Source: a virus (taxonomy: Duplodnaviria > Caudoviricetes). From it: a stretch of DNA of 47,194 nt. The position numbers and the translations under genes were made by a program. Positions within the stretch are counted from its first letter, which is position 1. Each line of letters starts with the position of its first letter. This document shows, piece after piece, positions 5,917 through 44,000 of the stretch. The notes below the pieces were generated by a model. That model did not search any database. It was not told where the DNA came from and saw only the letters and a program-made list of their open reading frames with translations. The stretch is from the IMG/VR virus record IMGVR_UViG_3300032212_000694, positions 1-47,194 of that record. One strand, given 5' to 3'.

Positions 5917-7056
5917 TTATAGCGTACTTCCCGTGTTACTGTCAGCTGAATTGTCAGTAAACGGGTTAAAATTTCTCTTAAGTTTTAAGTGCTCACCTTT
6001 GATATATTTCGCGTAGTTTTTGATAATCATTTCACTATTTGAGTGACCTACCATCTGCGCTATATCTAAAATGCTATACTCGCTACTTTTGAGCATATTT
6101 GTTATAAAAGTGTGTCTTGTACTATATAGTATTTTATAAGGTATTTCACACTTATTTAACAGTTTTTTCCAATGAGGTGTTAGCGTCTTACTTCCAAAAA
6201 ACATTTTATTTGTTTTTGGATTCACGAACACATCAAGGTTTTTATTTTTTCTAGCTATTGCTAACTGCTCTTTGACGTAAGGCAATAGTGGCTCAAAGAT
6301 TGGAATATCTCTTACACTGCTTTTTGTCTTTGGCGTGTTAATGTCGCCATGCCTTAGTCGTCTTACGATAGAGATAGTTCCATTGTCTAAATCAACGTCA
6401 CTCCATCTAAGAGCTAATAACTCACCAGTTCTTGCGCCTGTAAAAAATGCAAATGCCAAGAAGTTTTTTAACCAGCCATCTGCATTTTTCAACAAGGTAT
6501 TTACTTCTGCTACTGAGAATGGTTCAGTCACCTCTTTATCATGCTTTGGCAGCTTGATATTTAATGCTGGATTTGATACAATCTCTTCGTAATCAATAGC
6601 AATGTTTAGCACTGCGCTAATAGCACTTAAGAGAGTCCTAGCTCTTTTTGGTGTGATCTCCTTAAGTCTTAAATCAATAAATCTTTTAACATCAGCTCTT
6701 TTAATATCTTTTACATTTTTATTGCCAAATGTTGGCAAAAGCTGATTTACAACTATGTTTCTAAGTTCTCTATAACTTTTTAGGTTCTCTTTTGAGAGCA
6801 AGAGTTTGTCTGCATAGTATTCAAAAGTTTTAGGTTTGTCCTGGTCTTGCAAGAACTCACCGTTTATGATTTGTGCTTCAAGCTTTGGAATCATACTTTT
6901 TTGAACTAATCGTCTATTTGTTGCTGTATCTGCAAGTTTAGTGCTGCGTTGTATCTTTTTATCATTAACAACAAATTGCAAATATAACTTGCCTTGTCTA
7001 TTAAACATGCTAACCAAAGGTTTATCCTTTCGGTCAGCGATTTTTGCACGACTCAT
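5917..7056 (-). CDS. int: Phage integrase (tyrosine recombinase)
   Basis: TGARTGELLALRWSDVD, KT(K), YSTRHTF, VGHSN and YAKY motifs; adjacent to the att core; CTGACA direct repeats (arm-type) at 5940-5957. Confidence 0.95.
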   Translation of the reverse strand: MSRAKIADRKDKPLVSMFNRQGKLYLQFVVNDKKIQRSTKLADTATNRRLVQKSMIPKLEAQIINGEFLQDQDKPKTFEYYADKLLLSKENLKSYRELRNIVVNQLLPTFGNKNVKDIKRADVKRFIDLRLKEITPKRARTLLSAISAVLNIAIDYEEIVSNPALNIKLPKHDKEVTEPFSVAEVNTLLKNADGWLKNFLAFAFFTGARTGELLALRWSDVDLDNGTISIVRRLRHGDINTPKTKSSVRDIPIFEPLLPYVKEQLAIARKNKNLDVFVNPKTNKMFFGSKTLTPHWKKLLNKCEIPYKILYSTRHTFITNMLKSSEYSILDIAQMVGHSNSEMIIKNYAKYIKGEHLKLKRNFNPFTDNSADSNTGSTL

Positions 7057-7347: not shown

Positions 7348-8025
7348 TTAACTTTCAGTGTAGGCTTCATGTATGAAACTTTGGATGCTTTGTATTTTTA
7401 TGCGTAGTCTGTTGTATTTGCCCTCAAGGCTTTTTAGTTTGGCAGCTGCTTTTTGAGCATCTGTACCATGTTCTTTTATAAACTCTACAACTCTTATCCA
7501 GTGGTTAGCTCTATTTTCGTACCAAAGTCTGTCTTTAGTTGGTACACGATCTAATTCTTCTTGTGTTTGCTTTAGCAGCTCTTCAAATGCAGGTGATTGA
7601 AGTGGGTTTTTATTTTCAATTTGTTTTGGGTTTGATTCCAATTGTTTTTGAAGTAGGGCTATTGTTGTGTTTTGGGTTAGAACTAATTGTTTGTAGTCGG
7701 TGTCTGATGAATGAAGTTCTTGCTTCATTCTAAAAAACTCTTCAATTAATTTAATTTTAAAATCTACAACTTCTTTACTATTTTTTAAAAAAGTTATAAA
7801 TAGGTATGACTGTTGTTCGTTTAGGTAATATTGCTTTTGAGGTCGTCCACTTGTTTTTATAGTCTCAAATTCAAGTTTTCCGAATTTTTCAAGTTGTTTT
7901 TTATGTGTTCTCATTAACCTTTGTAAAGATTGAGTGTCATTAGCAGATATTTCTGCAACTTTTTGAAGTGTTGTAACCAGTTCACCGTTATATTTTTCTA
8001 CTAAAGCTGTCATAATGCTCTCCAA
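7348..8025 (-). CDS. Rha-family phage regulatory/antirepressor-like protein
   Basis: GRPQKQYYLNEQQSYLFITFLKNSKEVVDFKIKLIEEFFRMK matches the Rha N-terminal domain pattern. Confidence 0.8.
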   Translation of the reverse strand: MESIMTALVEKYNGELVTTLQKVAEISANDTQSLQRLMRTHKKQLEKFGKLEFETIKTSGRPQKQYYLNEQQSYLFITFLKNSKEVVDFKIKLIEEFFRMKQELHSSDTDYKQLVLTQNTTIALLQKQLESNPKQIENKNPLQSPAFEELLKQTQEELDRVPTKDRLWYENRANHWIRVVEFIKEHGTDAQKAAAKLKSLEGKYNRLRIKIQSIQSFIHEAYTES

Positions 8026-8823: not shown

Positions 8824-9231
8824 TTAGTGTTTTTTACTTTTAAATCTATTTCTATCTATGAAATGACCAGTCTTAAAGTGATCGCTAGCAACCCTTCCAA
8901 ACTGTTCCCATCTAGATATTAGTTTTGTGAGTGGTTTAACAGACATACCTAAAGTTTCAGTTATTTCATATTTATGGTGTTTAAAACTTAAAGCAACTGC
9001 TTCTAGTCTTCCTACTGCTTCAATAAATGGTTTAACAGACATACCTAAAGTTTCAGTTATTTCATATTTATGGTGTTTAAAACTTAAAGCAACTGCTTCT
9101 AGTCTTCCTACTGCTTCAATAAATGGTTTAACAGACATACCTAAAGTTTCAGTTATTTCATATTTATGGTGTTTAAAACTTAAAGCAACTGCTTCTAGTC
9201 TTCCTACTGCTTCAATAAATGAATTTGTCAT
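8824..9231 (-). CDS. Hypothetical protein with three identical 32-aa repeats
   Basis: FIEAVGRLEAVALSFKHHKYEITETLGMSVKP x3. Confidence 0.6.
   Translation of the reverse strand: MTNSFIEAVGRLEAVALSFKHHKYEITETLGMSVKPFIEAVGRLEAVALSFKHHKYEITETLGMSVKPFIEAVGRLEAVALSFKHHKYEITETLGMSVKPLTKLISRWEQFGRVASDHFKTGHFIDRNRFKSKKH
8932..9219. repeat. Perfect 3 x 96-bp tandem repeat
   Basis: Units start at 8932, 9028 and 9124 and are identical. Confidence 0.95.
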
Positions 9232-12819: not shown

Positions 12820-13433
12820 TACGTCACATTAAGTAGTTCATCACACAACGCTAAAATCTCACCTTGCGCTACTTCATCTTTCACATCAAGCACTGACTTT
12901 CCATTTCCTAAGCTCTCTTTGTAAATTTTGCGGTTGCGGATGATGGAATTTAAGAGGTGAATGTTTTCACTTTCTCCAATTGCTTCTTTGATCTCGTCAA
13001 AGTTTTTTGTCAGAGGGTGAATGTTGTTTAATGCCACGTATACGAAAGGGTTGTCTATCTCTTTTAAGATTCCTTCGAATGTTTTGAAGCCTAGAACCTC
13101 AGTAACGCTGTTGGAAATTGGTACGACTATTTTATCTGACCAGCTAATGGCTGTTCGGTTAATGTCATTGTCAAAACCTCCTACATCTACTACTAAGTAG
13201 CCCTCATGATTTTCAAACAGTTCTATCAGCTCTTCCACGCTTTGAGGCTGAACAACGTCCATACCGCCTAATCCACTAGATACCCGTATGCGGTTAATAA
13301 AGTATAGAGTTTGTTGAAAGTCAAGGTCCACTATGGTTACTTCTTTACCTCGTTTTTTAAGCGCATGAGCCAAGTTCCAGCAAGTAGTAGACTTACCGAC
13401 TCCGCCTTTTGTGTGGGCTATTGTGATTATCAT
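12819..13433 (-). CDS. parA: ParA-family ATPase (short type without N-terminal HTH)
   Basis: KGGVGKST deviant Walker A, DLDFQ, VVDVGG. Confidence 0.92.
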   Translation of the reverse strand: MIITIAHTKGGVGKSTTCWNLAHALKKRGKEVTIVDLDFQQTLYFINRIRVSSGLGGMDVVQPQSVEELIELFENHEGYLVVDVGGFDNDINRTAISWSDKIVVPISNSVTEVLGFKTFEGILKEIDNPFVYVALNNIHPLTKNFDEIKEAIGESENIHLLNSIIRNRKIYKESLGNGKSVLDVKDEVAQGEILALCDELLNVT

Positions 13434-13441
13434 ATTTTTTC

Positions 13442-13615
13442 CTAAAAATTTTCTGGGTCGTTCATGGATTCTAATTTGTCCATATACTCTAATGCTTTAT
13501 CGCGTGTGTGACAGTATTGAATTAGTTTCATATTGTCTACTGTCTCGAACTCAAATACATACCAAAAGAGTTTATTTAGTGAACGAGATATTTTGTAGTT
13601 TTTTTGTGCTCTCAT
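13442..13615 (-). CDS. Small hypothetical protein (57 aa)
   Basis: MRAQKNYKISRSLNKLFWYVFEF...; in-operon orientation. Confidence 0.5.
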   Translation of the reverse strand: MRAQKNYKISRSLNKLFWYVFEFETVDNMKLIQYCHTRDKALEYMDKLESMNDPENF

Positions 13616-13617
13616 TT

Positions 13618-13761
13618 TTAACTTGCCTTTTCTTTGATTGGTACAAGAGACCTATTCTTTGGTACGTTTGCTTTAAACTTTTTACCTTTAAAGGTTGTAT
13701 ATACATTTGTTGGATGAGTATTAATTACTTTGTAGACTTTACATGTTTTTCTGTATGGCAT
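13618..13761 (-). CDS. Small basic hypothetical protein (47 aa)
   Basis: MPYRKTCKVYKV...; strong AAGGAG RBS. Confidence 0.55.
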   Translation of the reverse strand: MPYRKTCKVYKVINTHPTNVYTTFKGKKFKANVPKNRSLVPIKEKAS

Positions 13762-13791
13762 AGTTGACTCCTTTATTTAATTAATTACTGT

Positions 13792-13869
13792 TTACACTCA
13801 CGCAACCGCCGTAAAATGAGAATGGGTTATATTCATTTTAAGGGGTATACGGCGGTTGGGTGAATGTAA
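13792..13869 (-). ncRNA. Long-stem hairpin A (putative RNase III substrate / small RNA precursor)
   Basis: Arms UUACAUUCACCCAACCGCCGUA / UACGGCGGUUGCGUGAGUGUAA pair at 21 of 22 positions; arms are homologous to hairpin B. Confidence 0.55.
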
Positions 13870-14168
13870 TTTGTGTTATGAAGTTTGTAATTTAAAGGTA
13901 AAGCTCATGACTTCTTTACCTCAATGTAGGGTTGAATTTAATAACTTACCTACTGTTATAGTGGGAGTTTGAGTCCACACATCAAGAATTTCCATCTCTA
14001 CTCTATCTTCGCCTCTTAGATAGTTGCTACGCCCCTCTACCGAACTTTAAGAAAACACTATCTACAGCTTCCGATAAACCGCTAAGAATATCTAATTACT
14101 GCAGCCTCGTGAGTTCTCATTGCGTAATCTCCTGGCTTATGATTATTTATCCAAAAAATCAAATAAAT

Positions 14169-14582
14169 CTAGTTTCTGTTTTTTAATAACTCTCGGCTAC
14201 TGCCTGTAAAATCTATATCAGGAATAATTGTCTGTGGCTTAAAAACAACTTCATAATGATATGTACTAACATCTTTAGAGTGTAGTTGTTCTGCAAAATA
14301 AGTAACATTGTCTGAAAGACCTAAGAAATGTTTTTTGTACGCATCATTACCTGTTTTACAAGTTACTTCTAATTGATCACCTTGGTCATTAATAGAACAC
14401 TTTCCTTTTATCGTTAGAATATAATCACCATTTATTCCATTGTAAAAAATAATTCTCCTGTCTATCTCAAACATATCTGATTGTTTAGACAAATTGTGTG
14501 ATGCAATTTGTGCATCTCTTTCACATCCAGTAAAAATTAAAGTTGCGACAATTACAGCTAATGGTAAAAGTATTTTTTTCAT
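14169..14582 (-). CDS. Conserved phage lipoprotein
   Basis: Likely start ATG 14582; lipobox FTGC; RRIIFYNGI...KKHFLGLSDNVTYF matches a family I recognise as widespread in phages. Confidence 0.8.
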   Translation of the reverse strand: MKKILLPLAVIVATLIFTGCERDAQIASHNLSKQSDMFEIDRRIIFYNGINGDYILTIKGKCSINDQGDQLEVTCKTGNDAYKKHFLGLSDNVTYFAEQLHSKDVSTYHYEVVFKPQTIIPDIDFTGSSRELLKNRN

Positions 14583-14704
14583 TTTATATATCCTTATTAA
14601 TTGAGAAATTACTTTATTTAGAAGTTTCAAACTTTTCTATTTGTGATTGAAGCTCACTAGCTTCTTTTAGCGTTTTTCAGGTCATTTTTTTCCTTTATCT
14701 GAGT

Positions 14705-14791
14705 TTTGCACTCAATCAACCACCTAATAGAGCGAGACATAACCTTTGTTTTGGATTTTTAGTTGTGGTTAGGTAGTTGAGTGAATGTAAA
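14705..14791 (-). ncRNA. Long-stem hairpin B (putative RNase III substrate / small RNA precursor)
   Basis: Arms UUUACAUUCACUCAACUACCUAA / UUAGGUGGUUGAUUGAGUGCAAA pair at 21 of 23 positions. Confidence 0.55.
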
Positions 14792-14910
14792 TATGTGCAG
14801 TTTATGTCGGAGAGCACCTCTCCGCAGACCTACGATGAGGACTTGCGATTTTTAGCATTTGGTTAAACAAAACGTTTAAGCTTTAGAAGCTTTGTTTTGT
14901 TTGGATAGTC

Positions 14911-14964
14911 AAATGTTACCGCAACGGAAATAAAATGAAGCTTAAATTATTTCCAATATGGAAA
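14911..14964 (-). promoter_or_regulatory. pL promoter with operators OL1 (14916-14930) and OL2 (14950-14964)
   Basis: TT(A/T)CC-N5-GG(A/T)AA palindromes; minus strand TTTAAG...TAACAT; near mirror image of the pR region. Confidence 0.75.
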
Positions 14965-15002
14965 GTTATGATATGATTTTGAAAAAATTAAAGTTATTGA
15001 TT

Positions 15003-15965
15003 ATGAGAATGGGGACATTATTTACTGGAATTGGCTCGCCAGAACAAGCAGGAATGCGCGTATATGGAAGTGAATTTACTTCTGTTTTTGCATGCGAGTG
15101 GGATAATTTCGCCCGCGAAAGTTTTGAAGCTAACTATAATATTGCGACTGAGCATTTTCATAAAGATATTAATGATATGGATGGCAAACAGTATGCTCGT
15201 AAAGTTGATGTTATAGTGGGGGGGTCGCCTTGTCAATCATTTAGTATTGCTGGACTTAAAAAAGGACTTGCAGATAAAAGAGGGCAGTTAATATGGCAGT
15301 ATTACCGCATCATCAAAGAGGCAGAACCTGAAATATTTGTTTATGAGAATGTAAAAGGAATGAAGTCTGATGATAACGGTAAAACTTTAAAAAATTTTAT
15401 TGAAGTATTTAGAGAGCTTGGTTATCACTGCCATTATGATGTTCTTAACACCAAGGATTACGGAGTTCCACAAAATAGAGAACGTGTTTATATCGTTGGG
15501 TTTAAAGATGCTGATTTATATCACCGTTTTGCATTTGCTCCAAAAGTAGAACTTACTAAACGTCTTAAAGATGTACTTGAAGATGATGTTGATGAGAAGT
15601 ATTATTTGAGTGAAAAAGCAATGAGTTTTTATAAAAGCAATTCAGAAAAAAACAAGTTAGTTGGTAATGGTTTCAGATTTAGCCCTACAGATGGTAATAG
15701 CATTGCAAAAACACTTACTAATCCAGGTAAAAACAGAATGGAAGCTAATTATATAGCAGACAAAAATGGTATTCGCAAACCAACACCTCGTGAGTGCTTT
15801 ACACTTCAAGACTTTCCTAAAACTTTTAAAATAGTAGTTTCAGACTCACAAGCTTACAAACAAGCTGGTAATTCTATGAGTGTAAACATTTTAGAAATGA
15901 TTTTTATACAGATAGAGAAAGTAAAAAGTGCAGAGCCTATGGATACTCTTTTTGATTTTTTATAG
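15003..15965 (+). CDS. dcm: C5-cytosine DNA methyltransferase
   Basis: LFTGIG (motif I), GGSPCQSFS (IV), ENVKG (VI), PQNRERVY (VIII), YKQAGNS (X); start probably ATG 15003. Confidence 0.93.
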   Translation: MRMGTLFTGIGSPEQAGMRVYGSEFTSVFACEWDNFARESFEANYNIATEHFHKDINDMDGKQYARKVDVIVGGSPCQSFSIAGLKKGLADKRGQLIWQYYRIIKEAEPEIFVYENVKGMKSDDNGKTLKNFIEVFRELGYHCHYDVLNTKDYGVPQNRERVYIVGFKDADLYHRFAFAPKVELTKRLKDVLEDDVDEKYYLSEKAMSFYKSNSEKNKLVGNGFRFSPTDGNSIAKTLTNPGKNRMEANYIADKNGIRKPTPRECFTLQDFPKTFKIVVSDSQAYKQAGNSMSVNILEMIFIQIEKVKSAEPMDTLFDFL

Positions 15966-15980
15966 TGGTATAGTTAGATT

Positions 15981-16625
15981 TTAGCGTCCTACAAGCTTTA
16001 GTCTTGCTGCTCTGTTATTGAATTTGAATTTATTAATGGCCACTACTTTATGGATTTTAAGGTCATTAATTTCATCATCATCTAAGCGTACACTTCTTGT
16101 TTTAAAGTTTTCTGTTTGGTTGTATGGGATGAATTGTACTATGTTGATGTCTGTGTCATAAAACACAACTTTAACGGCACTTTCACCTAGAATAGAGTAG
16201 TTGACAATATCACCACTTACAGGTGCAATGGTAGGATCACAAATAATTTCATCACCATTTTCAATTTCTGGTGCCATGCTGTCACCGTTTGCAATGACAC
16301 AATACATTGATTTATTCCAGTCTTCACCGTTGTAGTAGCAGATTTTATTATCTTCTTGTGAGTGATTATCTTCTGTATTTCCACAGCTTGAAGTTCCGTA
16401 TACTGGCACTTTTTTAACTGGTTTTTGTTCATCATCTCTTAGAAAATAGCTTTCTGAAACTCCAAAAAAATCAGCTAATTTAGGAATTGCTTCAGTCGGA
16501 ATGGCACGTGTTCCATTAGTCCATCTGTTAATATTTACAGCAGTTTCATTAAGAGATTCAGACAAACGTGCTTGAGTACCTCTTCCATTTTCATCTATTA
16601 ATGCTTTTAATTTTTTACCTATCAT
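15981..16625 (-). CDS. cI: CI-like repressor (HTH plus S24 autopeptidase)
   Basis: N-terminal HTH; SCG cleavage site; GDSMAP catalytic Ser and downstream Lys; divergent from cro. Confidence 0.92.
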   Translation of the reverse strand: MIGKKLKALIDENGRGTQARLSESLNETAVNINRWTNGTRAIPTEAIPKLADFFGVSESYFLRDDEQKPVKKVPVYGTSSCGNTEDNHSQEDNKICYYNGEDWNKSMYCVIANGDSMAPEIENGDEIICDPTIAPVSGDIVNYSILGESAVKVVFYDTDINIVQFIPYNQTENFKTRSVRLDDDEINDLKIHKVVAINKFKFNNRAARLKLVGR

Positions 16626-16653
16626 TTAAGAAAACCTTTATTATAAATTTATT

Positions 16654-16720
16654 TTACCACAGCGGAAATGTCCTTAAAGGAAATGATTTAAGTTATCTTT
16701 TATTTCCTTTGAGGTAACAT
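16654..16720 (+). promoter_or_regulatory. OR operators (16654-16668, 16669-16683, 16703-16717) and pR promoter
   Basis: ttaccacagcggaaa, tgtccttaaaggaaa, tttcctttgaggtaa; TTTAAG...TAACAT(16715-16720). Confidence 0.75.
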
Positions 16721-16727
16721 TTGCGAT

Positions 16728-16913
16728 ATGAGAATAATTGATATAGAAAATACGACTGGATATTCTTCAGTAAATATAATTAGATGGCTATCACATGCAA
16801 GACCTATTAAGCTTGAGGTGGCTAGAGAAATAGCAAATAAAATAGCACTTCCAATTGAAATTTTTGAAGATACTGAGTTGCAAAAAAAACATCTCGGTAA
16901 ATCTTATTTATAA
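16728..16913 (+). CDS. cro: Cro-like HTH protein
   Basis: 61 aa with HTH pattern, divergent from cI. Confidence 0.75.
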   Translation: MRIIDIENTTGYSSVNIIRWLSHARPIKLEVAREIANKIALPIEIFEDTELQKKHLGKSYL

Positions 16914-16962
16914 GAAAGAATACAAAAAACATAGAAAATACTGAACTACAAGGGGATGGGTA

Positions 16963-17448
16963 ATGTACTTAGGAAAAAATACAAATGTAACAAAAGCAAT
17001 AAAAGATGCAATTGACAGATATATGTTGAAGAACGAGTTGGAACGTGTTGATGTTGCAATTACATTAGGAATCGTAAAAGGTACGCTTGATAACAAGTTA
17101 AAACTATCAATGCCAGTAAACTCTTTCACTGTTGAAGAAGTATTGAAACTATCAGAAGTGATGGATGATGATGCCATTTTAAAAGCTATGTGCAATGAGC
17201 GAGGTCTTACAGCATTTGACCCAATAGAAGCTATGGCAGATGGTGGCGACGTTGTAAGTGCATTAATGATGGGAATACTTGAAATTAATACACATGTTGG
17301 AAAACTTGCCACCTTAAGTAAAGATGCAGCAGAAGATGGAAAGATTGATGAAAATGAAGCTGAAGCAATCGGAAAAGTATTAAAAGTACTTAGAGCTGTA
17401 GAGAGAAAGTTAGAGCTTACACTTAAAAATGGAAAGGATGTTTTTTAA
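16963..17448 (+). CDS. cII: CII-like phage regulatory protein (P2-CII/YmfL type)
   Basis: GTLDNKL...FTVEEVLKLSEVMDDDAIL and DGKIDENE motifs; follows cro. Confidence 0.7.
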   Translation: MYLGKNTNVTKAIKDAIDRYMLKNELERVDVAITLGIVKGTLDNKLKLSMPVNSFTVEEVLKLSEVMDDDAILKAMCNERGLTAFDPIEAMADGGDVVSALMMGILEINTHVGKLATLSKDAAEDGKIDENEAEAIGKVLKVLRAVERKLELTLKNGKDVF

Positions 17449-17593: not shown

Positions 17594-17688
17594 CTCTTTT
17601 TGTCTTCAATAGCCTCAAGTATCTTTTTAAGAAGTCTTTCAATATTTTCTGAACTTCCGATGAGTTTTTGAGCTTGATTATTATCCAT
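17590..17688 (-). CDS. Small counter-oriented protein (32 aa) with its own promoter
   Basis: MDNNQAQKLIGSSENIERLLKKILEAIEDKKS; AAGGG RBS; TGnTATAAT on the minus strand near 17729-17737. Confidence 0.45.
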   Translation of the reverse strand: MDNNQAQKLIGSSENIERLLKKILEAIEDKKS

Positions 17689-17784
17689 TACAATGTGCCC
17701 TTGTGTGTGATTTTGTTTTTGCAAATGAATTATAACACAAGGGCATATTGGAGTGTATATTCACTTAATTACTAAGGATATGAA

Positions 17785-19630: not shown

Positions 19631-20719
19631 ATGGAAAATAGCAAACGTTATGGCTCTAAAGTTCAACTGTACCGCTTAAAGAATGGTGACATTAGCTATT
19701 ACGCTTGCTATAAAATTGCTGGTAGAAAATTACGCTCTAGGATTGGAAAAAAATCTGAGGGTATTACTGAGCGCAATGTAATTGACCGTAGGAATAAAAT
19801 ACTTAGTGAGGCAAAACATGGCATTGATTTAAGTCAAAAGGGTTATAGATATTTAACATTTGATGCGCTTGCAAATGCATATTTTGATAGTAGAGAAGCT
19901 CACAACAGCAGCAACACTGCATCAAGACAGATGTATAAGAACCATATACAGCCTAACTTCGGTGACCTAACAATTGCTAGGCTTGATGATAGCTTGGTTT
20001 ATGAGTTGCAAGAACTTAAAAGTGCCGATGGGTTTAGTAAGGGAACGATTGATATTATCGTTAAACTAATTAGGCGTATATCTAACTATGGCGTTAAAAG
20101 TAAGCTGATACCGTTTAAACCATTTAATAATATAAAACTTTTTCATAACTATAACTCTAGACAAAGATATTTAACTAATAAAGAGATTGAACATCTATAT
20201 GCTTTAGTTAGTGATGATAGTACTTTGAATCTGTTTGTTCGTCTTGCGCTTGGTACTGGTGCAAGGGTTAAGAGTATCTTGGCAATACGCAAGATGAATA
20301 TTAATTTTGAGACAAGAACAATTGTTTTACAAGACTTCAAGCGTGATAATAAATATACAAGTAAACTAAATGAAAATCTATTTAAACTCATTGTAAAACA
20401 TAGTAAAAAACTTAATAACCACCATCATATTGTTAGTGATAATGGAAAGCTTTTGAAGTACTCAAAAGTTTATAGAAAACTAACTCAAATATTTAATTAC
20501 TTCAACAACGGATTAGAAAAAAATGATAGAGCTAATCGTGTTGTAATTCATACACTTCGTCATACATTTGCAAGTCATTTAGCTATTGCTGATGTGTCTA
20601 TTCAGAAGATACAAAAACTAATGAATCATAAAGATATAAAACAGACTGAAAGGTATGCAAAATTAAGCTCTGAGAGTGGTATGGAATACGTTGAAAATCT
20701 ATACAGAAGTGTGTCTTGA
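19631..20719 (+). CDS. Second tyrosine recombinase/integrase
   Basis: TGARVKSIL, K, HTLRHTFASHL, LMNH and TERYA: complete catalytic set; N-terminal arm-binding-like domain. Confidence 0.92.
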   Translation: MENSKRYGSKVQLYRLKNGDISYYACYKIAGRKLRSRIGKKSEGITERNVIDRRNKILSEAKHGIDLSQKGYRYLTFDALANAYFDSREAHNSSNTASRQMYKNHIQPNFGDLTIARLDDSLVYELQELKSADGFSKGTIDIIVKLIRRISNYGVKSKLIPFKPFNNIKLFHNYNSRQRYLTNKEIEHLYALVSDDSTLNLFVRLALGTGARVKSILAIRKMNINFETRTIVLQDFKRDNKYTSKLNENLFKLIVKHSKKLNNHHHIVSDNGKLLKYSKVYRKLTQIFNYFNNGLEKNDRANRVVIHTLRHTFASHLAIADVSIQKIQKLMNHKDIKQTERYAKLSSESGMEYVENLYRSVS

Positions 20720-21064: not shown

Positions 21065-21646
21065 TTGAAAACGTTAATTACGTTAACTGAACTAGCAGAA
21101 AAATTAGGTAAGAAAAAACCACAAATTAGTCGTTGGAAAAAGAATGGAAAGCTCGTAATGGAGGGAACTAAAGTAAATTATGAAGCTACTGTAAAACTGT
21201 TAAACTTATCTCAAGACACTCGTGGTGGCACAAGAGAAAAAGGAAAAACTGTAGAAGTTAGTGTTAACAGTAGTGTTAAAAAATTCGCTCAAAAAGTTGA
21301 CGATTTAAGTTCAAAAGAAAACAGTGTTAACAAATTGCCTGAAAACAGCTCTTCAAATACTCCAAATTATTACGTTTCAAGAGCCAAAAAAGAAGCTGCC
21401 CTTGCTGGAAGAGAAACTTTAAAACTGAAGCAAGAAAAAGGTGAACTTGTATCAAAAGAAGATGAGTATAAAAAGGGTTTTGAACTTGGTATGAAACTCA
21501 AAGATAAATTCATGTCAATACCTGACAGAATATCTCCCATATTAGCTGCTGAAACAGAACAACATACAATCAACAAAATATTAAAAGATGAACTTCATGA
21601 AGTAATTATTGACTTCATAAAAAACGGTGGATTTTTAGATGAGTAG
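21065..21646 (+). CDS. terS: Terminase small subunit (Nu1-like)
   Basis: N-terminal HTH; SRAKKEAALA...LKQEKGELVS; overlaps the terL start. Confidence 0.85.
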   Translation: MKTLITLTELAEKLGKKKPQISRWKKNGKLVMEGTKVNYEATVKLLNLSQDTRGGTREKGKTVEVSVNSSVKKFAQKVDDLSSKENSVNKLPENSSSNTPNYYVSRAKKEAALAGRETLKLKQEKGELVSKEDEYKKGFELGMKLKDKFMSIPDRISPILAAETEQHTINKILKDELHEVIIDFIKNGGFLDE

Positions 21647-23501: not shown

Positions 23502-24187
23502 AAATAGATTTTAAAGTTAAGGGCATGAGCGAAGTTACTAAGATGCTAAATAAAGAGTCATGGGATAAAGCATTTACAGCAACTGCAAATGAAATGGCAA
23601 CAAAATCATTTGCTAAAGCACGAACTCAAGTTAAGAAAAAATTTAATATAAACATCAAAACTGAGGGTAAAAACAAATGGGCTTTTGCATCAAAGGACAC
23701 AGGTAAAGTAAATGTAAGAAATGGTCATTTTCATCTTTTTAAATCTACAAAAAACAAACCTTTTATCATCATAGAAGTTGGTGGAAAACCAGCAAACCTA
23801 TCCCTTTTTGCAAAAAATATGCTCTCATCACCACTTAGAACCAAAAAAAAGAAAAAAAGAGAAGATAAACGAGCGAAACAATCAAAAAGTTTAAGAAGAG
23901 TACGGGTAGAAGTTCATAAAAATAAAGTTACATCCCTTAAATCCGCATTTTTTGCATCTATGCCTACAAAAAACTCCAACATAAGACACATGGGTGTATT
24001 TCAAAGAAAAGGAAAAGAGCGCACTAGCACGGGCAAAATACGTCTCCTTGAAAAAAGAGTTATCTCAAATCAGTCTATGTTCAAACAAGTAGGTTTTGAA
24101 AAAATCTTACAAGATCATGTCAAAGATAATTTGCAAAAACGATTTATGCATAACTTTAACCGTAAAATGAAAGGTAAGTGGAAATGA
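23498..24187 (+). CDS. Basic protein, lambda gpZ-like neck/minor tail protein
   Basis: Very basic; SAFFASM...H.GVFQRKGKER pattern resembles gpZ. Confidence 0.55.
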   Translation: MKIDFKVKGMSEVTKMLNKESWDKAFTATANEMATKSFAKARTQVKKKFNINIKTEGKNKWAFASKDTGKVNVRNGHFHLFKSTKNKPFIIIEVGGKPANLSLFAKNMLSSPLRTKKKKKREDKRAKQSKSLRRVRVEVHKNKVTSLKSAFFASMPTKNSNIRHMGVFQRKGKERTSTGKIRLLEKRVISNQSMFKQVGFEKILQDHVKDNLQKRFMHNFNRKMKGKWK

Positions 24188-24379: not shown

Positions 24380-25087
24380 TTAAGTACTCTCCTCATAAGC
24401 TTCATGTATAAAACTTTGTATATTTTGAAATTTTACACGTAACTTATTGTATTTACCCTCTACTTCTTTAAGCTCAGCTGCTGCTTTTTGTCCGTCTGTT
24501 CCATGTTTTTGTATGTACTGAACAACCCTTATCCAGTAATCAGCTCTGTTTTCATACCAATGTCTGTCTTGCGTGGCAGTTTGTTTTAACTCTTTTTCTG
24601 TCTCTATCATCAAATCTTTAAATGCTTTGGTTTGCATTGGATTCTTATTTTCAATTTGTTTTGGTTTAGATTCTAACTGTCTTTGCTGATTTGCAATTGT
24701 TGCATTTTGCGCCATGATTATTTTTTCTAAATCTGGATTATGTTTTTGCTTACCTCTCCAATAAGAGTTTATAACTGCAAAAGTTTCATTTTGAAATGCT
24801 ATAATCTTATCTCTCAATTCTTTTTTGACTTTGTTAGGATTAATTGAATAGAGAAATGCTGGGAGATGGTCTGCGTTCAAACTAACCATCTCCTGCACTC
24901 CGCTTGCTGTTTCGTAAGGGATGGCGATAACACCATACCTACTATCTTTATTTAATTTTACACTTTGACTTTTCCAATTTAAACCCATTGCTTCAATTAA
25001 AGGTTTCATTGCTATAAAAACCATGCCTTGTTCATTTATCGCCGTAATTAACTCAGTGCCCACCACTGATACTAATTCTGTTTTCAT
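24380..25087 (-). CDS. Antirepressor (P22 Ant N-terminal domain)
   Basis: FIAMKPLIEAMGLNWKSQSVKL...FLYSINPNKVKKELRDKIIAFQNE matches the P22_AR_N pattern. Confidence 0.85.
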   Translation of the reverse strand: MKTELVSVVGTELITAINEQGMVFIAMKPLIEAMGLNWKSQSVKLNKDSRYGVIAIPYETASGVQEMVSLNADHLPAFLYSINPNKVKKELRDKIIAFQNETFAVINSYWRGKQKHNPDLEKIIMAQNATIANQQRQLESKPKQIENKNPMQTKAFKDLMIETEKELKQTATQDRHWYENRADYWIRVVQYIQKHGTDGQKAAAELKEVEGKYNKLRVKFQNIQSFIHEAYEEST

Positions 25088-25116
25088 TTTATACCCCTTA
25101 GTTTTGTTACAATGTA

Positions 25117-25175
25117 ATGCTATCAGGTTTTATAGAGTATTGTCAAGTATTATAAAGTATTGCAAATATTGATAA
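25117..25175. promoter_or_regulatory. Antirepressor promoter overlapped by 10-bp-period AGTATT repeats (candidate RHH operator)
   Basis: Minus strand TTGACA-18-TAGCAT; + strand agtattgtca agtattataa agtattgcaa. Confidence 0.55.
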
Positions 25176-25217: not shown

Positions 25218-25379
25218 ATGTCTAATGAAACAAAAATATTTTCATCTCACATAGATAAAGATTTAGTTAAAAAAATAGATGAATATAGCAAAAAAGAGGG
25301 GCGTACAAAACGATGGCTGATAGAAACTGCATTAAAAGACTTTTTTAATAAAGAAGAAGAAAAGAAACAAAAAATATAA
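25218..25379 (+). CDS. Ribbon-helix-helix (CopG/Arc-like) regulator, 53 aa
   Basis: MSNETKIFSSHIDKDLVKKIDEYSKKEGRTKRWLIETALKDFF...; GAGGAG RBS; divergent from the antirepressor. Confidence 0.75.
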   Translation: MSNETKIFSSHIDKDLVKKIDEYSKKEGRTKRWLIETALKDFFNKEEEKKQKI

Positions 25380-41037: not shown

Positions 41038-44000
41038 ATGCCAATTGATACAGTAACAGAAATAACAGTAGTACCAAGTAAACCAGATGTTAATTTTAGG
41101 GCTACCATAAACACATGGTTTACACAGTTTGCAACTTTTTTAGCACAGTTTAATACTAGTATTGGGCAGATGAACACACTAGAAACAGCTGTGGACAATG
41201 ATGCAACCGCATCAGGTCTAAACGCTCAATCAGCTCAAACAGATGCAGCTTCTGCATTAGCTTCAAAAAATGCAGCAGCACTAAGCGCAACAACTGCAAC
41301 AAACGCAAAAGATTTAGCTGTTGGTGCTAAAGATGAAGCAGTAACAGTTCGTGACCAAGTAGTAGCAAACGCAACACCTGATTGGGTTTATGGAACAGAT
41401 TACGCAAAAAACATTGATGTAATTTCACCAATTAATGGCTTAAAATACCGTTCAAAAATCAGTATGTTAAATAGTACGGTTGATCCAAGTTTATCTGCTG
41501 ATTGGAAACTGATTGATAATAATCTATTTTTTGGAGACTTTCCTGATGAAGCAACACTACTACTAGCAGATACAACTGGCGTTGGTGCTGGATGGCGTGC
41601 AACTGTAAGTGGTGGCATTGGAGTACAAGCAACAGAATATATTTGGGATGTTCAAAATCAAAAATGGGTGCAAGTAGGAATTGAAGTAACTGCGACCCCA
41701 ACATGGCTAATAGAACCAGTAGATGGAGCGGAGCAGAGTAATCAAGGTTATCAGATTAATTTTTCATATCCTGTTGGAACAACAATTGAAGTAAACCATA
41801 CACTTGATGGAAATCCAGTTAACCCAATTGTGGACGTTTCAACAATTACAACTGATGGAAAATTTGGAGTTCAACTTCTTTCAGTTAACGCAAGCAACGG
41901 TAGTCATGGCTTTAGTATTGTAGCAACTGAACCAAATAAACTAGCTTCATTAGCACTTACTAAAACAATTACTGTTTTTGATAAACCTGATGTTGCACCA
42001 AATACTACACTTGTTGATTTTAGCGGTGTGAACATGAGTGCAACTAACCTTCCAAATAACAGAGGTGTTGCGTTCACTTCAAACATTCTTAATGTTGATA
42101 CAACTGCATTAGCTGGCTTTACTGCTGATGGTGTCTTGCCAAAACAGAAGTTTACAACTACAACAGATATTAGAGGGCATGAAAAACTAAGAGTTAAATT
42201 CGGTAATGAGTTTAGTGATGTTGGTGTTAGCTCTATTGTAGATAACGCTGGAATATACACTGTAACACTTGCACAAGCACTAGCTTATGATTTAATAGGC
42301 GGTGAAAAATACAATAATTTAACTCTTACAGATTTAACTGCAAGTGCTGGAACTGAAACAACATTTGTAACAGCTACACCAGTGGCACTGGATGAGTACA
42401 TTACCGTTGTTGATGATTTAGGAAATATTTATAATAAAGTTGTAACTGCTGTTAGCGGAACATATACCGTAACAGTTGCAAGTGTTGGAGTTGGTAGAAC
42501 AATTGCATCTGCATTTAGTAGAGCTGATGCTATGGAGATTACTACAACTGCAACAGGTGGAGTAGCTGGTGCTTATACGTTTGATACCCTATATGAAGTT
42601 TATAAAGGTCAATCAATAGAAACATTAGGTGCTGGTGGCTATGGTAATACTGAGGCTATTAGTGGAGTTAGTTCAGCTATTAATAGCGATACAAGTGCTG
42701 ATACTATTGTTGGTATATTGCCAGCTACCACACTGCATTGGCAATTAAATGATACAGGTACAAGTGGAACTTGGACAGGAACAGAAACATATGCTGTTGG
42801 GCAATTTGGCAATGGTGCTTCTTTAGATGGTGCTAGCTATGTAATAAGTGCAGTTACGCCAACAGCTAGTGCAGATTTTACTCTATCTAGCTGGTTTAAA
42901 CTTACCACAGTAACAGGGACTCAAAGGATTATGGGTTTCAATGATGGTAGTGATATAGCAAATGGTGGTCTTTATGTAAATGCAACAGGAGCAGAATTAA
43001 CAATCGGTGGTGTGTGTGCTCATACAGATACAGGGATATTCACACTTGTAGCAGGGACTATGTACCACATGGTTACTACTTATACTGCTGGGGAAAATGT
43101 AAGAATATATATAAATGACGTACTAGTCTTTACAATAGCTTCGACTACATTTACCACTACCTCTACTGTTAGGGTGGGTCTTGGTGGTAATTACACGCTT
43201 AGTGGCATGATGGCTGGTATAGCAGACCAGCTAAGGTTCTATCAAGGCGTTGTAGCAACGCAAGCACAAGTAACTAGCTTATTTACTGAGACTGGAATAA
43301 CTTACACAGCAACCATAGCAAACAACCCAGCAAACGGTGTTAGACTTGTAGATGAGATTGCTATGACAAGCGAAATAGCACTTGGTGCAAACTATGCCAA
43401 ATATACAAACAGTGTTAGGCTTTTAGCAGATAACATTTTTAGCAGTGCAACAAATGTAAATACTTTAGTATTAACTAAAGAGGTATTCATTGGTGACACT
43501 TTATCTGTTTGGAACACTGTAACGAGTGTTTATGATGAAGTTGCAGCAAGTGCTGTAAGTATTAACAATCTTCAAAACACTACACTACTAGGTGGTACTG
43601 ATATATCAATCACTCCTTTAACTTCAACTAAAAATGCTACTGCTGGATGGGCTAATAGCTCATCATACTCAGAACAATTTGTTGGTAGAGGACTTATATA
43701 TTGGCAAGTAACTGTACAACAATCAACTACTGCTATTGGTATATCAACAGACAAAACAGAACAAACAAACTATTTAGGCTCAACTGCTAATGGGTGGGCT
43801 TATCATGCAGATGGGTGGGCTTACACTAATGGTGTAGGTACAAACCTAGCGGTTACTTACATCGCTGGAGATGTTATTGGTGTTTTATACGATACTGCAA
43901 CTGGTAACTTATCATTTTATAAGGGAGGTGTCTTGGTTGCTGGTGGGAATACTTATACTCTTGGTGCTAATATAGATGTATATACTGCATCATCAATAAG

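Follow-up and report, generated by a model that had tools for sequence, protein, structure and literature searches.

Hairpin A, a long-stem RNA hairpin encoded in the early leftward region of a lambdoid prophage from Campylobacterota, may well act in trans as an antisense RNA and keep the antirepressor gene ant, to which it is not linked, from being translated, a reading to which we assign a probability of roughly 0.55. The prophage was analyzed as one stretch of 47,194 nucleotides (the window throughout), and comparison of the arms indicates that hairpin A and its neighbor, hairpin B, are two copies of one conserved RNA scaffold in that early region.

13792..13869, minus strand: hairpin A, with a 21-bp stem (one C-C mismatch, one U-G pair) and a 34-nt loop; homologues in the related prophages G001, G002 and G003
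14706..14790, minus strand: hairpin B, with the scaffold as in A and an unrelated 41-nt loop; homologue in G001

The first-pass annotation had described two hairpins, at 13792-13869 and 14705-14791, that share arm sequences and keep their pairing despite substitutions, and both observations were confirmed. On the minus strand, A and B fold with -33.3 and -23.2 kcal/mol (z of -9.7 and -4.5), 0/200 shuffles fold as well, and a generic long-stem scan of the window returned A, B and one other hairpin, nothing else. The six aligned copies have an invariant base (TTACATTCAC / TGAGTG) and 96.5% of cells paired, with both sides changed in 4 of the 19 stem pairs and 11 of the 19 invariant. The plus strand folds well too (-34.9 kcal/mol for A and -24.4 for B); the U-G pair of the lower stem, invariant in 6/6 sequences, would be an A-C mismatch on that strand and thus points to the minus strand. 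The hairpins had also been placed just upstream of ribosome binding sites (RBSs), which holds in that an SD-like sequence and a start codon follow in 6/6 copies, although the ORF directly behind hairpin B is merely ATG-ACC-TGA, a minigene with a good SD (14677-14685, minus strand). Rfam gave 0 matches at gathering score for the window and four related loci (five chance hits at E<=10 in 13400-15100, C4 not among them), and the arms do not clearly resemble the 16S processing stalk of genome G327.

The genomic context is that of an early operon, with the following features around the hairpins.

15981-16625: cI
14910..14967, minus strand: promoter/operator module read as pL, a 58-nt inverted 79% copy of the cI-cro module, with TAACAT at 14918-14913 and a putative start near 14906
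16666..16723, plus strand: matching module between cI and cro (pR), with TAACAT at 16715-16720
14169..14582, minus strand: lipoprotein-like gene (phrog_478, PF25682) between B and A
13618..13761, minus strand: 47-aa ORF with the SD AAGGAG, ~17 nt behind hairpin A

The window carries integrase, leftward early genes, cI, an ORF in the cro position, a cII-like gene, replication and terminase genes, and head and tail genes. Its cII-like protein matches Nitratiruptor phages and a metagenome-assembled genome labelled Helicobacteraceae (G006, locus L038), and the nearest genomes found, those of G006's genus, share 70-74% identity with a host gene next to the related prophage G001; judging by its FtsZ sequence, we take this genus to be probably Sulfurimonas. 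TAACAT stands ~7 nt ahead of a plausible start in both promoter modules, and the leaders of G001-G003 have a similar hexamer and an ATGCAA/ATCCAA start. Since the module is duplicated and has both TAACAT and a plausible start, the hairpin region can reasonably be read as a putative pL leader; the pL module is absent from the list of a promoter scan of the window. The first hairpin of this predicted leader (14862-14903, minus strand) is 75% similar in G001, and another small hairpin lies at ~14812-14829. Besides, G002 and G003 share a 154-nt non-coding leader upstream of hairpin A (L003 6920-7075 and L023 about 6320-6480, both minus strand; 91% identical), and the Nitratiruptor phages NrS have a different conserved structured leader ahead of a hairpin of their own; these conserved leaders, with zero Rfam matches, are candidates for put-like antiterminator RNAs. 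A C5 methylase gene, whose most likely start is the ATG at 15003 (not 14958) and lacks an SD, is inserted between the two promoter modules, and its relative in G001 and G002 is placed in the right operon. The 47-aa ORF has no Pfam or PHROG match, and further ORFs of 10-24 codons with SDs start at 14120, 13995 and 13908.

Between B and A, G001 carries other genes, two in number (one DUF2303), which look as if inserted between tandem hairpins. They are bordered by a 12-nt direct repeat, TGAGTGTAAAAC, equal to the end of hairpin B (L001 10071-10082 and 11186-11197). This exchange of genes, together with GTTRRRY motifs in the arms (GTTGGGT and GTTGAGT, plus strand), would suit DNA elements such as integron attC-like cassette sites, or else intrinsic terminators, an explanation that we regard as exceedingly improbable: both recombinases fall below the TIGR02249 integron-integrase cut-off (31.5 and 55.7 vs 265 bits), the stem, free of extrahelical bases, runs ~7 bp past the would-be R boxes, an RNA is favored by the invariant U-G pair, and 0 intrinsic terminators or terminator-like sites were found in 13400-17000. 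The second tyrosine recombinase (19631-20719, rightward operon; 82-83% identical in G001 and G002) occupies the slot of lambdoid late-control genes.

Pattern and protein searches recovered the element in three other Campylobacterota prophages, G001 (A and B), G002 (A) and G003 (A), while model R1 applied to 151 genomes of the order yielded none of the family, its two weak matches lying outside it. Hairpin A is therefore sampled in four phages, which amount to three independent loops, since the A loop of G001 is 1 nt apart from that of G002. Cellular genomes contained zero copies in the three scans made, namely the R1 search, a pattern scan of genome contigs (0 matches) and an arm-pattern scan of 353 family genomes (2 matches vs 4 control matches). 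R1 also had zero matches in the related records G004, G005, G407, G408, G409 and G719 (9-58% complete) and in genomes G035 and G405, and for annotated phages and plasmids a hairpin match was absent among the matches listed (20 of 47 in one search). A metagenome scan returned 11 stretches, among them G002 (L027), G001 (L032/33) and the window's own prophage (L034/35, 100% identical and so non-independent); six of the 11 look like chance (best E 0.0013 with R1). Single-arm scans of viral contigs gave chance matches without a hairpin in 11 of 13 matched contigs, and L198 was a chance match within a gene. Two tandem prophages of G405 (L072 9530-9625 and L074 11625-11702) both carry, ahead of an RBS in the late operon, a hairpin of 19-21 bp whose arms are related and whose loop has CUCCUU; the G405 long-stem hairpins with anti-SD loops had no significant target. 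Three exact 96-nt tandem copies within a 135-aa ORF of the window (8932-9221) occur in L034 too and may be either genuine or a product of the assembly. Hairpins A and B are undescribed in the literature searched, which mostly did not extend to older subscription papers and supplements, and a term search of the available parts of two sources found such RNAs unmentioned there (PMC11531552, PMC9723563).

The case for ant as a target is built on the loop of hairpin A and on the following sites.

24380..25087, minus strand: ant, a P22-type antirepressor (P22_AR_N; phrog_524, E 2e-31; PF10547, E 9.7e-33), among late genes
25218..25379, plus strand: Arc-like ribbon-helix-helix repressor (phrog_582, PF01402), divergent from ant in an immI-like module
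25117..25146, minus strand: promoter-like site with a putative function for ant, TTGACA, 18 nt, then TAGCAT preceded by TG
13839..13849, minus strand: segment X of loop A, UAUACCCCUUA, anti-SD; its first 2 nt still belong to the 5' arm, at the top of the stem
13812..13825, minus strand: segment Y of loop A, CCAUUCUCAUUUUA, anti-AUG
25084..25100, minus strand: predicted target, ant SD to start codon +1, TAAGGGGTA followed by TAAAATGA, 17 contiguous nt
15003..15013, plus strand: C5 methylase gene start, ATGAGAATGGG, an 11-nt complement of segment Y
21628..21638, plus strand: the 11 nt before the terL ATG, complementary to loop B, a match judged to be probably chance

TTGACA also lies upstream of the ant genes of G001 and G002. 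The ant gene and a Rha-like gene (7348-8025) have a common C-terminal half (72% over 300 nt), and domain swaps of this kind recur among the three antirepressor-like genes of each relative.

Attention had been drawn to ant and terL by 11-mers of loops A and B complementary to 25100-25090 and 21628-21638, with the caveat that such matches arise by chance and the argument that both land on start regions. The 11-mers are exact and the caveat was well placed, as shuffled loops give one in the window in 416/500 (A) and 444/500 (B) trials; further ones lie at 15003-15013 and 24160-24170 for hairpin A, and at 2817-2827 and 43625-43635 for hairpin B. The landing itself lost its weight, with shuffles hitting -25..+15 of one of 261 candidate starts in 88/500 (A) and 64/500 (B) trials. 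Loop A and ant are linked by a stronger, two-segment match. In all four A loops a variable linker separates CCC(C)UUAAA, close to the 5' end, from CAUUUU, at the 3' end, and the order is swapped relative to normal antisense, the 5' loop end being anti-SD and the 3' end anti-AUG. Because the stem brings the loop ends together, the target can pair with X, cross the top of the stem and then pair with Y, so that the split match would cross it as a three-way junction, with hairpin A lying 11.2 kb from the ant start. The part of Y that pairs with the window's ant is UCAUUUUA, and the full 14 nt pair with the ant allele of G001.

The split-match rule was devised on the window, and the ant half of G002 was examined afterwards, out of sample; candidate starts were mechanical ORF starts, false ones included, and the 828 host starts came from 800 kb of the 1.9-Mb genome G327. 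By match count, the 17-nt match of the window ranks 1/261 among its own starts, with 0/828 host starts and 0/1000 shuffles as good. The genome-wide top match in G002 is its own ant start (TTAAGGGA-ca-GAAAATGAGAA, 19 nt; rank 1/208; 0/1000 shuffles), outscored by 1/828 host starts. Over the 17 nt, the window and G002 targets differ by three changes; the loop compensates for two of them, a G-C to A-U change in the SD and a U-A to G-C change at -4, but not for the third. The G001 pair is weak (13 nt; rank 4/179; 64/828 host starts; 111/1000 shuffles), and G003 has hairpin A in a 67%-complete record in which ant was not found. For ant, the first-pass proposal is supported, and by a stronger match than the single 11-mer; for terL it is not supported.

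Energies from a three-strand model, with the loop opened in the linker, rank ant 3/261 in the window (behind two methylase starts), 1/208 in G002 and 1/179 in G001, with 10/300, 0/300 and 27/300 shuffles as good, respectively; shuffled loops also rank the ant of G001 2-20. The four A loops paired with three ant alleles span -12.4 to -24.2 kcal/mol, against -2.0 to -12.2 for six other antirepressor starts, and the B loops with the three ant alleles span -5.4 to -12.5. This ant clade is a better partner for each of the four A loops than the other antirepressors are. The strongest pair joins the window's loop A with the ant leader of G001 (11+14 bp around a small hairpin, -24.2 kcal/mol, 0/300 shuffles), which explains loop A letters unused by the window's own ant; this better fit to the allele of another phage suggests that ant modules are shuffled or that the RNA acts across phages. 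A stem-loop is inserted in the A loops of G001 (L001 11218-11237) and G002 (L003 about 6879-6898, minus strand); it exposes a second CCCCUUA, which is complementary to the TAAGGGG box in the ant leaders of the window and G001.

Some of this fit appears to be general. That 10/300 shuffles equal the window pair and one host start stands above the ant of G002 indicates a loop that is partly generic anti-RBS. RNAcofold did not find an interaction with closed loop A, loop-loop pairing being outside its model, and the topology may make it hard to fit two helices of 8-11 bp into a closed loop whose linker is 9-19 nt long. The methylase start match reached 0/300 shuffles in the window and is not kept in the G001 and G002 starts (-6.3 and -9.6 kcal/mol), so it is possibly a second target or chance.

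The same observations have to be weighed against an explanation that we consider unlikely, in which the hairpins are simple sites for processing or stabilizing the early mRNA, the pyrimidine-rich loops are filler, and the loop-ant fit derives from general anti-RBS composition or shared ancestry. Early transcripts of T7 and lambda carry RNase III hairpins before RBSs, and T7 R1.1 has a CAUUC/GAGUG pair. The start region behind all six copies, the arm conservation beyond pairing needs (the 11/19 invariant pairs), the presence of rnc in 4/4 genomes of the likely host genus and a second hairpin class in the rightward operon with a similar CAUU/AGUG base all accord with such sites, which nevertheless leave unexplained the conserved X and Y beside a variable linker, the top rank of ant by match count in two phages and a 16-nt invariant block in loop B. 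Processing is also compatible with the anti-ant explanation, as a biogenesis step. The second hairpin class (17682-17759; plus strand -35 kcal/mol, z -6.6) was aligned in six copies from four phages, three of them in G002; each copy spans both SD and start of a small minus-strand ORF that differs from copy to copy, a TATAAT-like hexamer is present in each, and the base, CCAUU/AGUGG, is similar to that of A and B, CAUUC/GAGUG.

Hairpin B has a less certain target, and none of the phage genes stands out for both B loops. Repression of terL translation by loop B, proposed by the first-pass annotation, is very unlikely. The exact 11-mer is the longest single match among 261 starts and the energy rank is 3/261 (14/300 shuffles), but the split count ranks terL 11/261 with 155/1000 shuffles as good, the 64/500 shuffles above give an 11-mer at a start, and the match is unconserved: loop B, including the 11-mer, is conserved in G001, where terL encodes a different protein (30% identity) and its start matches 5 nt. 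The terL match is therefore probably chance. The block ACAACUAAAAAUCCAA is the 16 nt invariant in the window and G001.

A host mRNA as the main target of one or both loops, with ftsZ as the candidate, is a further possibility, though a rather doubtful one. It follows the example of DicF, an RNase III/E product of an equivalent prophage operon that blocks ftsZ translation, according to the part of the source available (bioRxiv 2023.04.14.536235). The ftsZ set comprised 25 distinct starts parsed from 29/30 loci of G006's genus, and ftsZ was chosen by analogy, not by a blind screen. Its median ranks among 828 host starts were 44 and 30 for the B loops and 27, 23 and 68 for the A loops, all with surrogate ftsZ starts rather than that of the true host (the nearest being those 70-74% identical in the G001-flanking gene). 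With a subsample of eight variants and 40 background starts, shuffles were as good in 0/60 and 2/60 cases for the B loops and in 2, 6 and 22 of 60 for the A loops. Pairing is possible between the 3' half of loop B (UCUCGCUC / UUUCACUC, then GGUU) and the ftsZ region from SD to start, GAGUGAGA..AUGGAACC, and both octamer differences between the B loops stay G-U pairable with GAGUGAGA. Against this, ftsZ was never first, its ranks ranged up to 495-542, G327's own ftsZ ranked 322 and 62 of 828 with the B loops, and a host search with the invariant 16-nt block matched scattered coding sequence only (30 matches inspected). By analogy with DicF, ftsZ may be named as a weak candidate target of loop B.

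A similar architecture was found in the Nitratiruptor phages NrS-1, -2 and -3, in which a 19-bp hairpin with arms unrelated to A/B occupies the equivalent position (zero R1 matches in NrS-3).

L081 13539-13600, minus strand, and 13099, plus strand: NrS hairpin and ORF start
L153 11568-11629, minus strand, and 11134, plus strand: NrS hairpin and ORF start

The loop, UACUCCCUUU-CCAUCUUA, is the swapped-order complement of AAAGGGAGTA followed by AGATGG, the start of an unannotated, hydrophobic ORF of 77-78 aa on the opposite strand that is conserved between NrS-1 and NrS-3. This start ranks 1/345 by count (3/1000 shuffles) and 3/345 by energy, and 14 nt also pair linearly. A Nitratiruptor-type ftsZ (L149) matched the loop over 8 nt only, the phage ORF being the better target. 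The comparison suggests that the split, swapped-order geometry is not unique to hairpin A, and the NrS hairpin may be regarded as its analogue by architecture, with unrelated arms. Annotated minus-strand ORFs at the NrS hairpin may be spurious, and NrS-4 has another hairpin at the equivalent place (L154 11019-11101).

Known antisense RNAs provide a frame for these predictions. As far as the sources available in part describe it, C4 of P1/P7 is processed from a longer phage transcript, recognizes antirepressor mRNA with two short segments, one at the RBS, and owes allele specificity to variable segments (PMC5320573, PMC12197685). Hairpin A resembles it in its predicted two-segment complementarity to an antirepressor mRNA including the RBS, clear in two of the three phages with ant and weak in one. 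C4 is linked to the ant operon and consists of three stem-loops cut by RNase P, whereas hairpin A is one long stem with one open loop and no Rfam C4 match, encoded 11 kb from ant and outside its operon, and its two segments lie on either side of the closing stem, their order swapped. Sar arises by antisense transcription inside the arc-ant region and is fully complementary, whereas the predicted pairing of hairpin A covers 17-25 nt, is split and comes from an unlinked locus 11.2 kb off. Sar, encoded in P22 immI, blocks translation initiation of Ant (PMC12197685, in the part available), and the predicted target here is likewise a P22-type Ant beside an Arc-like repressor (PF10547, PF01402).

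In the available part of its source, DicF of the Qin prophage is an sRNA cut by RNase III/E from a repressor-controlled early operon and acting at an RBS in trans (bioRxiv 2023.04.14.536235). Gene order and the duplicated, putative promoter module likewise place our hairpins in a CI-repressed leftward early operon. DicF is Hfq-stabilised, terminator-ended and directed at host ftsZ, whereas the hairpins lack a terminator and their best target is a phage gene; the DicF family has no Rfam match in the window or related loci. CJnc190 of Campylobacter jejuni, an sRNA freed by RNase III from a duplex of its flanks, represses a G-rich RBS (PMC8687705, in the part available). Its type of feature is present here, namely a long 19-21-bp intramolecular duplex with covariation, flanking an anti-RBS region. 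CJnc190 is chromosomal, with its own promoters and the cis antagonist CJnc180, whereas A and B are phage-borne and duplicated with different loops, and neither Rfam nor sequence linked the two. The Sas RNA of P22 (sieB) switches off an opposite-strand accessory gene, as described in the available parts of its sources (PMC12197685, PMC7067206), and comes closest to the NrS case; it is cis-encoded, whereas no sieB-like gene overlaps hairpin A or B. Judged by these likenesses and differences, hairpin A is likely a new anti-antirepressor antisense RNA that would work like C4 and Sar and belong to neither.

The mechanism that we propose begins with the loss of CI repression, whereupon the hairpin RNA would be made within the pL transcript. 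RNase III would cut the 21-bp stem, or the stem would simply close and protect the loop. A three- or four-way junction would then form in which the docked ant mRNA is the third arm, with its SD and AUG covered; a nick in the variable linker may be needed for this. The output of Ant would then be a pulse, in which Ant lifts CI, pL fires and RNA A turns Ant off; the ant alleles of related phages could be targeted as well, and B would be the same scaffold with another guide. A broader version, which remains speculative and in our estimate improbable, sees in A and B a programmable phage guide-RNA cassette, in which loops can be exchanged on a constant 21-bp scaffold and would grip a target start from either side of the stem; such an RNA could possibly be a circularly permuted antisense, matured to a nicked or circular form.

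Antisense control of antirepressors is known from a few enterobacterial phages, and if the proposed role of hairpin A is true it would be extended to Campylobacterota with a different scaffold, the unlinked position in the early operon closing a negative feedback on Ant. Moreover, swapped-order split pairing is missed by ordinary target predictors and would provide a new rule for finding the targets of orphan long-loop hairpins, a geometry that can be tested now because NrS-1/2/3 are cultured phages. If the cassette version were also true, phages would copy and reload this scaffold, with loop A directed at their own and rival antirepressors, loop B at a gene of the host, for instance ftsZ, and the NrS loops at membrane-protein morons.
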